Source: a plasmid. From it: a DNA stretch of 64,000 nucleotides. The notes under the pieces are model-generated. The model saw only the letters and a program-made list of their open reading frames with translations. It did no database searches and was not told the origin of the DNA. Every line of letters starts with the position of its first letter. The stretch's first letter is position 1. A program made the translations under genes and the position numbers. Where the stretch lies: the sequence record NZ_CP118944.1, one strand, 5' to 3'. Of the stretch, positions 14,361 through 19,416 are shown piece after piece.

Positions 14361-14398
14361 GGGGTTGAAGTCCAATGGAACGAAAACGTACTAAGGTA
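14361..14398. repeat. 38-bp Tn3-family terminal inverted repeat (GGGGTTGAAGTCCAATGGAACGAAAACGTACTAAGGTA), outer end at 14361
   Basis: Close match to the Tn3 IR GGGGTCTGACGCTCAGTGGAACGAAAACTCACGTTAAG as remembered. Inside faces gajB/gajA/tnpR. Confidence 0.7.
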
Positions 14399-14431
14399 AG
14401 TAAGTAATTCCATTGTATACTTTCAAAGCAC

Positions 14432-16360
14432 TTACTCTATTTCACTAATGAAACGGGATTTCTGCTGAAACCTAAGATCACCCCAAGGCATCATTCTCTG
14501 CTTAGGATAAGACACGTACAACCAACGCTTCGCTCTCGTCACCGCGACAAAAGCGTTATTCCGTTCCTCGTCAAGCTCTTTGACCGTCCTAGCCCTGTAA
14601 TCAGGAAAAACCCCTTCGCACATCCCTATCAAAAATACAATATCCTTTTCTAAACCTTTCATCGTATGCACAGTACTTAGGGTTAGGCCTTCATCTATAC
14701 TACTTTCAGAAAGTTGGCCTAATGCCAATGCATTTCTAAATGCAACCAATGAATCACCTAAGCCTTTACGCTTGAATCGGGTCCACGTACTACTAAACTC
14801 TTTAAGCTCTTCAATACTCAGTTTAACGTCTTCTATTTTATCATCCGAAACACCGTTATGGTTTTCAACCAACGATGTAAGAAGTTCATTAAAATCCTTT
14901 ACTAGTTTGGGGATTTTAGGGTTTTCAATATCTAAGTTGTCAATAGCAACAAGAAGTTTTTCGAATATCGTAGAGTACTCATCTAATGCTGATGAAATTT
15001 GAGATGCCATTTCCCGCAATACATTCGTTGTCCAGTTGGCTGGCTCAGAGATACTCAGTACTTGGCATAACTTTTTCCCATCTACCCAATCTTTAGAATT
15101 CAACTTCACCCTAATGGCATAGTCTAAGACCTTTCCGAATCTAGTTGACGGCTCAAGCTGCCTTTCTCCTTTTCTCAAAGAGTAAGGTATCGAATTATCT
15201 TCAAGGCATTTTTCAAGCTTGCCAAAAACAAATCGATTGCGGCCAATCACTACCATATTACCTAATGATATTTTTCCTTCAATATCATCGTGAATTTTTA
15301 ATGCCAAAAGATTCTTTATCGTGGCAACAACCGCAGTAGCTTCATCCTCTTCAGAATTATATTCTGAAATGCTAACTCCACCCTCTAAGGCATAATCAAT
15401 CTCTGCTTGTGAGCCTGGCCGCAACTTGTTTGCCGCACGAATAACCGACTTAGTACTGCGATAGTTTTCCTTCAGCTCAAACTTTTGAGGCATAAAATCG
15501 TTAATGAAACTTGAGCAGAAGTAGTCTTTTGATGACCCATTAAACCCATAAATCATTTGATTAGGGTCTCCTACCATCAGAATGCTTTTTATCACATCAC
15601 CGCAAAGCACCTTGATAAACTCATACTGTGCTTTATTAAGATCTTGGGCTTCATCAACACAAACATGTTTATACTGTGAGCGGTATATTTTTGCGATCCA
15701 GTCGTACGTGAGCAGTATTCGATGGGCGTACACTAAAATATCGTCATAATCGATACCCCCACTATTTAGTAGTGCAGCTTGATAGTCCTGATATATTTTC
15801 CAAATATTATTATTTTGATATAGCTCAATGACTTCCAACTCTGTAAGCAGCTCCCTTTTTATTTTCGAAAATATATCCATATAGGATTGAAGATTTCTTT
15901 CCCTGTTTTTTAGTTCCTTTGAATCGGTAATTGCTAGATATTCATCTATATTAGTGCCATCTTCACGTAAAGATTGTATAAAGACTTCCATTCGGTCTTT
16001 ATCTCTATCATATATATGCAACTCCGATGGCAAACCAACGGTATGGCCATATTTCTCCAAAACACGCTGTGCGACCGAATGAATTGTGGCGATCCAAGTT
16101 CTGTTTTCTACTTGTTCGAAGTCGATTAAACGCTCACTCATTTCTTCTGCAGCTTTATTCGTGAAGGTGAGTGCGATAACACCGTCTTTTTTTGTTTTCT
16201 CCAAAATATATCGAACACGCTCTGTTAACACTCGCGTTTTACCAGAACCTGCTGATGCAAGTACTTGAATGGCTGTATCCATAGGAGCCTCAACGATCTG
16301 GCGCTGAGCATTTGATAGATTCATATCAGACTCCTGACTCAATTTGTTTGAATAGTTCAA
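14432..16360 (-). CDS. gajB: UvrD/PcrA/Rep-type SF1 helicase, Gabija GajB-like
   Basis: 642 aa. Walker A ASAGSGKTRVLTERV near the N-terminus, further UvrD-like motifs. Overlaps the upstream OLD-family gene by 35 nt. Confidence 0.8.
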   Translation of the reverse strand: MNYSNKLSQESDMNLSNAQRQIVEAPMDTAIQVLASAGSGKTRVLTERVRYILEKTKKDGVIALTFTNKAAEEMSERLIDFEQVENRTWIATIHSVAQRVLEKYGHTVGLPSELHIYDRDKDRMEVFIQSLREDGTNIDEYLAITDSKELKNRERNLQSYMDIFSKIKRELLTELEVIELYQNNNIWKIYQDYQAALLNSGGIDYDDILVYAHRILLTYDWIAKIYRSQYKHVCVDEAQDLNKAQYEFIKVLCGDVIKSILMVGDPNQMIYGFNGSSKDYFCSSFINDFMPQKFELKENYRSTKSVIRAANKLRPGSQAEIDYALEGGVSISEYNSEEDEATAVVATIKNLLALKIHDDIEGKISLGNMVVIGRNRFVFGKLEKCLEDNSIPYSLRKGERQLEPSTRFGKVLDYAIRVKLNSKDWVDGKKLCQVLSISEPANWTTNVLREMASQISSALDEYSTIFEKLLVAIDNLDIENPKIPKLVKDFNELLTSLVENHNGVSDDKIEDVKLSIEELKEFSSTWTRFKRKGLGDSLVAFRNALALGQLSESSIDEGLTLSTVHTMKGLEKDIVFLIGMCEGVFPDYRARTVKELDEERNNAFVAVTRAKRWLYVSYPKQRMMPWGDLRFQQKSRFISEIE

Positions 16361-18200: not shown

Positions 18201-18708
18201 TGTTTAACTTTCTGGCAATTTCTGTAGCCCCAAGACCTTGCTCACGAAGGGAAAATACTTCTTTTTTGTTAACCGTAGGTTTTCGACCAAATTTAATTCC
18301 TTTGGCCTTTGCTTCTACACGGCCTTCATTTGTTCGCTCAAGTATCCTCTGACGCTCAGCTTGGGCGACCGCTGACAAAATAGTAACCACCATCTTCCCC
18401 ATCACCCCTTCAGTGCTGATCCCATCATCGAGGAACCGGATGGATACACCCATTTTATCAAATTCCTTGATGAGCTGGATCATGTCAGCTGTATCACGGC
18501 CCATTCGGTCAAGTTTCTTCACCAAGATAACATCGCCTTCTTCCACTTTAAGCTGGAGCATCTGGAGACCTTCGCGATTTGCATGGCTTCCTGATTCCTT
18601 GTCAGTGAAAATTCGGTTGGTACGGACACCTTCGCCCTGAAGAGCCTTAACCTGTATATCAAGTGACGGTTGACTGGTGGAGACTCGAGCATATCCGAAG
18701 AGTCTCAT
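18154..18708 (-). CDS. tnpR: Serine recombinase / resolvase TnpR of the Tn3-family element
   Basis: 184 aa from M at 18708 ([19 protein letters not shown]…), C-terminal HTH. Divergent from the tnpA remnant. Confidence 0.85.
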
Positions 18709-18873
18709 AGCGACTTTATCTCCCAAATAAATTAGTAGACCTTGTGTCTAATAAGTAGTTGATTATTGACTTAACAGACAGTTTATGATGTTAACTTTAT
18801 TGTGTCCACAATGTTATAAATTAATAGACACTAAAAATGTCTCGCATTTTTGGCAGCCTTGCTTGGGGGATAC
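18709..18873. promoter_or_regulatory. res site region (TGTC…GACA-type subsites) between tnpR and tnpA remnant
   Basis: Repeated TGTCTAATA…ACAGACA, TGTCCACAATGTTATAAATTAATAGACA and TAGACACTAAAAATGTCTCG motifs seen in sequence. Confidence 0.5.
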
Positions 18874-19416
18874 ATGCCCGTCGATTTTCTAACCTCGGAA
18901 CAGAAAGCCTGCGATAGACAATTCTCTGCCGAACCGAATGAAGTGCAATTGGCCCGTTACTTTCATCTGGATGAAGCCGACCAGGCTTTTATCAATCATC
19001 GGCACGGCAATCAGAACTGTTTTGGTGTTGCTTTGCAGTTAGGCTGCGTGCGATTTCTAGGGACCGTCATATCCAACCTGCAACATGTTCCGGTCATACA
19101 GTGCAGGCTTCCGAGCTGATCCGCTCGCTACTGAAAAGTGACCGGCCTTCCAGCCTGGCACAAGCCATCATTGAAGTGGACCGTATCAATAAGACACTTT
19201 ACTTGCTGAACTACGTAGATATATATAGGGCGTTACTACGACAAGCAAAGACGCTGGTCGGACTACGGCCCCGATAACGGGTTGCGGTTCGGGATACTGT
19301 AGCTGAGCGACAAGTCATCTACACTGAGCCCTGCGGTTTGTCCCCAGAACCGTCCGAGAACTGATTGAGGACGATGATTGCCAACGCCGTGCGGGGCTTT
19401 TTCCTTGGTTATCGGC
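18874..19416 (+). pseudogene. tnpA: Tn3-family transposase tnpA remnant (N-terminal ~80 codons fused to out-of-frame C-terminal fragments)
   Basis: MPVDFLTSEQKACDRQFSAEPNEVQLARYFHLDEADQAFINHRHGNQNCFGVALQLGCVRFLG is the canonical TnpA N-terminus. Downstream frames read …LLKSDRPSSLAQAIIEVDRINKTLYLLNYVD… and …QLNRGEGRH-like C-terminal TnpA segments, with stops and frameshifts. Confidence 0.7.

Follow-up and report, generated by a model that had tools for sequence, protein, structure and literature searches.

Transposons of the Tn3 family move by replicative transposition, in which the transposase TnpA binds the terminal inverted repeats (IRs) and forms a cointegrate; the resolvase TnpR resolves the cointegrate at the res region and also represses the divergent promoters. 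Tn3 and gamma-delta (Tn1000), both of the Tn3 subgroup, share with the locus described here a divergent tnpA/tnpR arrangement around res, and the passenger of Tn3 lies downstream of tnpR next to an IR. The locus occurs in a 64,000-nucleotide stretch of plasmid DNA (sequence record NZ_CP118944.1, hereafter the window), where the Gabija genes gajA and gajB stand in the position of Tn3's bla. It is very probably a decayed Tn3-family unit transposon carrying Gabija that inserted in an Aeromonas conjugative plasmid and was then deleted twice. Unlike Tn3 and gamma-delta, its passenger is a two-gene anti-phage system and not a resistance gene, and the window copy has one IR missing and tnpA 88% deleted.

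The known passengers of Tn3-family transposons include resistance, mercury, virulence and toxin-antitoxin genes (PMC7157771, PMC4337579). The toxin-antitoxin pairs (Lima-Mendez et al. 2020, PMC7157771) are likewise small non-resistance modules located beside the resolution functions, a situation also seen in a sibling element discussed below; in contrast, Gabija is a 3.7-kb nuclease/helicase defence system and does not belong to the toxin-antitoxin pairs for which stabilisation of the transposition module has been proposed. Plasmids are reportedly enriched in Gabija (PMC12853721). As an OLD nuclease with a UvrD helicase, it was found in 338 Tn7-like transposons, and it ranked second in frequency among their defence cargoes (Benler et al. 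2021, PMC8649781). Such Tn7-like carriers share Gabija as cargo; however, their machinery is unrelated (cut-and-paste or targeted transposition by TnsABCD(E) as opposed to replicative TnpA/TnpR), and they are much larger and hold multiple cargo genes, whereas the Tn3-type unit is a minimal 7.6-kb element with a single cargo. In PMC12342005, citing Cheng et al. 2023, GajA is described as an ATPase/TOPRIM nicking endonuclease that is held back by nucleotides and nicks when their levels fall, and GajB as a nucleotide-hydrolysing, UvrD-like helicase that detects DNA ends.

The closest intact element in the plasmid collection is the Shewanella mer transposon of pNi1-3 (NZ_CP076856; L002), which belongs to the same backbone lineage and has the layout IR, cargo, tnpR, res, tnpA, IR. 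It is 77.5% identical in nucleotides to the window over tnpR, res and the 5' part of tnpA, 94% identical over a tnpA scrap, and both of its IRs are 86% identical to the window IR. It differs in carrying merRTPA in place of gajAB and in having an intact tnpA of 1001 aa.

Boundaries and gene content of the element

Plasmids with an empty site delimit the insertion. In the A. hydrophila Ah2111 plasmid and five further plasmids the whole block is absent, and the backbone runs from window 14259-14360 through 85 bp to window 19223 onward. Since the empty-site plasmids join the 14360 side to 19223, window 14361-19222 (or from 14360) is extra DNA, and a conjugative plasmid of the Aeromonas hydrophila type has gained 4.86 kb by insertion. 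The flanks of the block are 98% identical to the Ah2111 conjugative plasmid (MOBF, MPF_F) and to other Aeromonas plasmids, and the GC content is 35–44% within the block versus 47–57% outside. Window 19223-22296 corresponds to positions 6147-9209 of one empty-site plasmid (L001), whose positions 6062-6146, the approximately 85 bp of backbone, are missing from the window at the right edge of the insertion. The left edge is the first G of a 38-bp IR to within one base, as a G stands at 14360 in the backbone too; L001 reads ...GCTATTG followed by CACAATGG, and the window reads ...GCTATTG followed by GGGGTTGAAG. The left flanking target sequence TATTG (14356..14360), or CTATT if the IR starts at 14360, is presumed to be the surviving copy of a 5-bp target-site duplication. 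An earlier reading of the window (hereafter the original prediction), which had proposed a Gabija pair as cargo of a decayed Tn3-family transposon, ran the element to 19416. This overshoots by 194 bp, for the element ends at 19222 and bases 19223-19416 are ordinary plasmid backbone that is found also in plasmids without the insertion.

The 38-bp IR on the cargo side (14361-14398, + strand, GGGGTTGAAGTCCAATGGAACGAAAACGTACTAAGGTA; possible start 14360) is oriented with its GGGG outer end at the left and its interior to the right. Its GGGG start and internal ACGAAAAC...TAAG motif presumably correspond to those of canonical Tn3 and gamma-delta IRs. When a degenerate consensus was built from the IRs of independent relatives, it matched once in the window against 0.00 matches expected by chance. 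Compared to the IRs of the relatives L111, L096, L097 and L016 described below, there are approximately four mismatches in 38 positions, allowing a 1-nt register shift near the inner end, and the outer end of the window IR is the exact limit of homology with copies in four other genomes. No second IR in partner orientation was found anywhere in the window. Thus one IR of the pair is left in the window, against both in L111, L096, L104, L002, L069 and L049. An IR-like sequence at approximately 5050-5088 was considered as the missing partner and rejected, since it terminates a Tn5393-like strA-strB element and has its outer end pointing in the wrong direction.

Next to the IR lies gajB (14432-16324, − strand), which encodes a UvrD-like SF1 helicase of 630 aa, followed by gajA (16326-18149, − strand), which encodes an OLD-family ABC ATPase with a TOPRIM nuclease domain, 607 aa in length. 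GajB matches PADLOC profile PDLC00132 over its full length (5.2e-288) as well as Pfam UvrD-helicase (4e-62) and UvrD_C (6e-34). GajA matches PDLC00067 (6.5e-259, profile positions 1-598 of 604) and the Pfam domains AAA_15, AAA_21 and OLD-like_TOPRIM, with the ABC-type ATPase at the amino terminus and TOPRIM at the carboxy terminus. Both features of Gabija membership, an OLD-ATPase/TOPRIM GajA and a UvrD-like GajB, are therefore present. The exact GajA protein is on record from Aeromonas hydrophila as WP_275116016, and exact proteins are also recorded from Aeromonas hydrophila as WEE29250-29252 on a 100.8-kb contig.

Beyond gajA is tnpR (18154-18708, − strand), encoding a serine resolvase of 184 aa (Pfam Resolvase, 9e-36, and HTH_7). 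Against PDB chains, TnpR scored 277.5 bits with Tn3 resolvase (2.7e-82) and 277 bits with gamma-delta resolvase, compared to 102.6 bits with Gin invertase and 58 bits with Tn552 resolvase (bin3, with a chain closely matching Sin). The 165-bp region between tnpR and tnpA (18709-18873) contains a res-like region (18717..18830, − strand) of three dyad-symmetric blocks bounded by TGTCT...AGACA. The site I-like block is 28 bp with a central TTATAA (18803-18830), the site II-like block is 36 bp and follows a 22-bp spacer (18745-18780), and the site III-like block is 25 bp (18717-18741). From an alignment of the intergenic regions, the three blocks are conserved in five relatives, the Shewanella mer transposon among them. 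The block sizes and the 22-bp spacer presumably resemble those of Tn3/gamma-delta res, and the blocks may act as res.

The gaps between the genes are very short. The tnpR stop is 4 nt before the gajA ATG, with the junction sequence kept in all copies, and the gajA stop (16326-16328) is 1 nt from the ATG of the immediately downstream gajB at 16324; therefore tnpR-gajA-gajB reads as one operon. No promoter-like site was found between tnpR, gajA and gajB, and one was found in res, a σ70-like tnpR promoter (18808-18780, TGGACA-17-TAAACT) that overlaps sites I and II. The operon is most likely transcribed from this tnpR promoter, and by analogy to Tn3 it would probably be autoregulated by TnpR.

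What remains of tnpA is divergent from tnpR and in two pieces. The first remnant (18874..19095, + strand) covers codons 1-74 of 1001 in the DUF4158 region; it is 92% identical to aa 1-74 of the L111 TnpA by tblastn, matches Pfam DUF4158 (6.8e-16), and covers positions 2-54 of NCBIfam NF033527. The second (19098..19220, + strand) covers the 41 codons 836-876 inside the DDE domain, at 95% aa and 96.8% nt identity to L111 and profile positions 251-290 of Pfam DDE_Tnp_Tn3. At the junction between them (19096..19097), 2,281 bp have been lost inside tnpA (L111 1459-3739) and the frame is shifted. At the second junction (19221..19224), the last 411 bp of the transposon (L111 924-1334), comprising the 3' end of tnpA and the second IR, have been lost together with approximately 85 bp of backbone, which resumes at 19223; the sequence reads as backbone CCCTATAT, then AT, then ATCTACG of tnpA. 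Neither long microhomology nor IS ends were found at the two junctions, where microhomology amounts to 1-2 nt (at most 1-2 nt for the first, with the window aligned to both sides of the gap in L111 and L002). Illegitimate recombination is therefore their likely cause. In total, 115 of 1001 codons are left, far from a Tn3-size TnpA of approximately 1000 aa, and the window contains no intact Tn3-family tnpA.

Apart from the right-hand limit, the original prediction described these parts well. It had placed a Tn3-type IR at 14361-14398 facing gajB-gajA, which the consensus match and the insertion boundary confirm. The resolvase gene, the res-like region and the divergent tnpA that it named are all present, and TnpR groups with Tn3 resolvases and not with invertases. 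Its description of tnpA as an amino terminus plus carboxy-terminal scraps corresponds to aa 1-74 and aa 836-876, and the alignment it proposed for mapping the deletion resolves into a frameshifting internal loss and a 3' loss. The absence of the second IR and most of tnpA was likewise read correctly.

Relatives of the element and other Tn3-type carriers of Gabija

An intact version of the transposon was identified in the Logan assembly ERR10850138_575 (L111). It is 7,555 bp from IR to IR, has both IRs, and encodes an uninterrupted TnpA of 1001 aa (DUF4158 and DDE_Tnp_Tn3, no stops) with intact TnpR, GajA and GajB. The identity between L111 and the window is 97.55% for window 19096-14357 and 96.8% for the scrap at 19097-19220. 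From this identity over both parts, the window element is an L111-type transposon with two deletions. A different origin for the 124-bp scrap, from a Shewanella-like transposon, had been considered, since the scrap is 94% identical to Shewanella and 81% to the Photorhabdus africana copy, with the rest of the element showing the reverse. This was rejected because L111 matches the scrap at 96.8% identity and the remainder at 97.6%, which makes the scrap part of the same element.

Three further copies were found in Photorhabdus and Xenorhabdus. The copy in P. africana (L096) has both IRs, a perfect 5-bp duplication ATTAC, and a tnpA with a 568-bp internal deletion. Because ATTAC flanks the Gabija-bearing unit, the unit has transposed as a whole at least once. 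In Xenorhabdus japonica (L016), aa 1-137 of TnpA are fused to aa 925-1001. In P. luminescens subsp. mexicana (L097), tnpA is cut by an IS6-family element, and an IS256-family element lies inside the cargo-side IR. These three copies sit at loci unrelated to the window site, and homology stops exactly at the outer end of the IR; the Gabija-bearing unit has been found at a minimum of five different sites. Thus tnpA has been destroyed in four different ways in four copies (window, L016, L096 and L097) with tnpR-gajA-gajB intact, and none of the five copies of the lineage has a truncated tnpR, gajA or gajB. With respect to the P. luminescens copy, the IS256-family and IS6-family elements are at 14316-15617 and 8954-9658, respectively, most of tnpA having been replaced by the latter. 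A NERD/helicase-type gene of 1613 aa is located just upstream of the transposon, and its surroundings may be another defence neighbourhood.

L016, L096, L097 and L111 were found by a GajA scan of species-representative genomes and look-ups across 90% identity protein clusters, and the intact copy was reached only through other members of such a cluster. Exact look-ups of TnpR and GajA returned approximately 20 metagenome or genome contigs, every one of which has the decayed form of the window at the window's own plasmid site. PLSDB plasmids and E. coli genomes contained no copy of the tnpR-gajAB unit, only bare gajAB. A scan of metagenome contigs with the exact tnpR/gajA junction pattern returned no match; two JGI contigs nevertheless match the pattern, and this null result says little.

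A comparison of the window, L016, L096 and L097 gave dN/dS values of 0.08–0.13 for gajA and 0.11–0.15 for gajB. The window operon may provide anti-phage defence, for which this purifying selection (dN/dS 0.08–0.15) is the one indirect line of support. As a separate observation, dS between the Aeromonas and the Photorhabdus/Xenorhabdus copies is 0.09–0.15 for tnpR versus 0.34–0.47 for gajA, or three to four times lower. This hints at recombination within the element or extra constraint on tnpR.

A sibling element (L104) has both IRs, a 5-bp duplication (TACAG) and an intact TnpA that is 94% identical to that of L096. In the place of Gabija it carries a YafO-type toxin and TnpC_reg. The 5-bp duplications of L096 and L104 are a further likeness to Tn3 and gamma-delta; none was seen in L111 or L049. 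The TnpA proteins of L096 and the Shewanella element score 845–1086 bits with the NF033527 'Tn3 family transposase' model against a cut-off of 500 bits. Another sibling (L105 61-564; ENA ERZ27286563 k119_1416540) has a TnpA 92% identical to the P. africana copy and lies near a ThsB_TIR (Thoeris-like) gene, with an IS30-like gene in between. The ThsB_TIR gene may be another defence gene associated with this lineage.

The passenger can be delimited from both sides. Bare gajAB cassettes without a Tn3 module occur in E. coli E24377A and in K. pneumoniae, Enterobacter and E. coli plasmids at 80–83% nt identity, and their homology spans window 14428-18173. The E. coli E24377A gajAB region also holds IS66- and IS21-family elements and a helicase gene of the SPI-7-type island. 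The Shewanella backbone is homologous as far as window 18178, 5 nt from the cassette limit, and again at the IR, which places the cargo swap point at the 3' end of tnpR (18173/18178) as judged from these alignments. From the two homology limits, the passenger is a tight cassette that begins approximately 24 bp upstream of gajA and finishes a few bp beyond the stop codon of gajB. It joins the last codons of tnpR on one side and ends approximately 30 bp from the IR on the other.

Gabija was also found in other Tn3-family backbones. A 7,640-bp contig of Photorhabdus antumapuensis (L069) is a complete element with 36-nt IRs at both ends and a TnpA of 1005 aa. Its TnpR is 31% identical to the window TnpR, and its gajA and gajB (3811-7581) are each split in two open reading frames (ORFs), which could be real pseudogenes or a draft-assembly error. 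A Limnobacter element (L056) belongs to the L069 lineage and has intact gajAB. A metagenome-assembled genome (MAG) of Pseudomonadales (L049) contains an element with 61-nt IRs, a TnpA of 995 aa and intact gajAB; from their translations, two ORFs between tnpA and gajA resemble a tyrosine recombinase and a coiled-coil partner. All three elements share the PADLOC subtype of the window (GajA PDLC00067, GajB PDLC00132), and 4 of the 80 best GajA relatives in species-representative genomes lie in Tn3-family modules. The subtype thus appears in at least three Tn3-family backbones, two of them TnpR-type lineages and one apparently TnpS/TnpT-type.

History of the remnant and alternative explanations

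The observations very probably reflect the following history. A 7.56-kb Tn3/gamma-delta-like unit with the layout IR, tnpA, res, tnpR, gajA, gajB, IR inserted by replicative transposition into an Aeromonas MOBF/MPF_F-type conjugative plasmid. One illegitimate deletion then removed 2,281 bp inside tnpA and another the 3' end of tnpA, the second IR and approximately 85 bp of backbone, although the order of the two may be the reverse. With a single IR and 115 of the 1001 codons of tnpA left, the remnant is unable to transpose by itself. It retains an intact tnpR-gajA-gajB operon, which would be expressed from the tnpR promoter under TnpR control and would defend the host of the plasmid against phage, and it would still spread with the conjugative plasmid. 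The original prediction held that the unit is fixed in place. This stands for transposition, but not overall, as the remnant travels on a conjugative plasmid. Its other expectations agree well with the relatives: an intact homologous transposon with this IR exists in L111, L104 being a sibling with both IRs; L111 and L096 show the Tn3 layout with Gabija as cargo between two IRs; and the ATTAC duplication in P. africana is direct evidence of transposition as a unit. The transposon is a genuine means by which Gabija can move.

Several points weigh against this account. The right-hand copy of the target duplication was lost with the deleted right end of the window element, and L111, which is a Sequence Read Archive (SRA) assembly, lacks a 5-bp duplication of its own (TGTCC versus TATCT). 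GajA is a distant match to the solved Bacillus GajA chains (E ~5e-9); transfer of the mechanism from Bacillus Gabija therefore rests on family membership. The pieces might instead have arrived separately, Gabija having dropped beside an existing Tn3-family wreck without ever being cargo. The region is indeed a defence island (Type III restriction-modification, AbiE), and the gajAB cassettes of E. coli E24377A and a K. pneumoniae plasmid are free of the Tn3 module. However, empty-site plasmids lack everything from the IR to the tnpA scrap all at once, and the same arrangement, including the 4-nt tnpR-gajA junction, lies between two IRs in L111 and in L096, the latter with a 5-bp duplication, leaving separate arrival highly improbable. 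It is scarcely credible that the IR resembles Tn3-type repeats by chance and that tnpR, as an independent plasmid resolvase or invertase, lies beside Gabija by coincidence. Only a single IR is present, and serine recombinases are common on plasmids, another being encoded at 6421-7059; on the other hand, the IR matches those of elements whose TnpA passes NF033527 and forms both the insertion boundary and the homology boundary in four other genomes. Moreover, TnpR scores far higher with Tn3 and gamma-delta resolvases (277 bits) than with Gin (103 bits), and genuine tnpA remnants diverge from it across a conserved res. Continued mobility of the remnant, by one-ended transposition or a surrogate second IR with TnpA supplied in trans from a related element, is very unlikely. 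One-ended transposition has been described for Tn3-family elements, the cargo-side IR is intact and close relatives with intact TnpA exist (L111 and L104), but there is no such gene in the window and the 20-odd contigs with the decayed form are all at the same plasmid site.

Two further proposals refine or extend the account of a decayed Gabija transposon. In the first, tnpR-res has been retained for a function, whether in Gabija expression and regulation, plasmid multimer resolution, or both, and such a function would account for an undamaged tnpR in every copy whose tnpA has decayed. Of the five copies, four have a broken tnpA and none a broken tnpR, the res blocks are conserved, the 4-nt tnpR-gajA gap is too short for a separate promoter, and dN/dS for tnpR is 0.14–0.37 in informative pairs. 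Conversely, tnpR divergence is low and dN/dS noisy (1.5 in one pair on a handful of changes), and the Photorhabdus/Xenorhabdus copies, taken as chromosomal, need no multimer resolution. The chance that this refinement is correct falls only a little short of even. The second proposal, that Gabija and an active Tn3-type transposase remain together only briefly and that tnpR-res has been exapted as an autoregulated defence promoter, is unlikely to be correct. Replicative transposition would make nicked, free-ended intermediates of the kind that GajA and GajB are reported to produce and sense, and established copies would then keep the defence genes or tnpA, rarely both. A broken tnpA with intact Gabija is seen in four independent insertions (the Aeromonas plasmid, X. 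japonica, P. africana and P. luminescens), an intact tnpA with split gajA and gajB in one (L069), and both intact in two (L111 and L049). The sample is small, and ordinary tnpA decay in old insertions explains this tally equally well.

Plasmid setting and significance

The transposon landed between a Type III restriction-modification system (8852-13603; PADLOC MTase_III 8e-168, REase_III E=0) and an AbiEi/AbiEii system (20344-21700; PADLOC 2e-48 and 3e-113), with radC further along. The insertion was thus made into a pre-existing plasmid defence cluster. Close to its left side, a 336-bp hok/gef toxin segment (L001 5623-5958) is absent from the window at 14258/14259. Several metagenome contigs with the same Gabija insert depart from the window left of 14259, and the hok loss is therefore later than, and independent of, the transposon insertion. 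Elsewhere, a metagenome contig (L003/L013) that in other respects matches at 99.99% identity lacks window 7660-8814 and 23676-25113. Both of these stretches contain transposase-like ORFs (7763-8797, with a DDE_3 domain and IS630-like, and 23658-24857) and look like recent IS insertions into the plasmid.

A Tn5393-like element is located 9 kb away in the same window (134-5088). It has the same family layout, with a tnpA remnant (1315-134, − strand), tnpR (1501-2115), the two passengers strA/aph(3'') (2181-2984) and strB/aph(6) (2975-3820), and a GGGG-type IR (GGGGTATGAAGTCCATTAGAACGG..., approximately 5088-5050, − strand). It differs in its resistance cargo, in its TnpA/TnpR lineage (25% aa identity to the L111 TnpA) and in the opposite facing of its IR. 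It may be regarded as a counterpart, with resistance genes as cargo, to the Gabija element of this plasmid.

Full-text searching found no literature linking Gabija to a Tn3-family element or describing the Aeromonas insertion, TnCentral and ISfinder being outside its coverage, and the transposon-cargo surveys that it found concern Tn7-like elements only. Defence cargo on transposons is already known from the Tn7-like elements, and the Gabija-Tn3 case is well supported and unsurprising to a specialist. What it provides is a concrete example, with all its limits mapped, of a small Tn3-type unit transposon whose passenger slot holds a defence system. The example comprises an intact 7.6-kb progenitor-like copy, a duplication-flanked copy and several independently decayed descendants, distributed over Aeromonas plasmids and Photorhabdus/Xenorhabdus genomic contigs. 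The intact element would also be a compact natural cassette for moving Gabija between replicons experimentally. For plasmid biology, the window shows one way in which defence islands grow, by a transposon landing between defence systems. With the same Gabija subtype in at least three backbones, the findings suggest that Tn3-family elements carry defence genes more often than has been counted.

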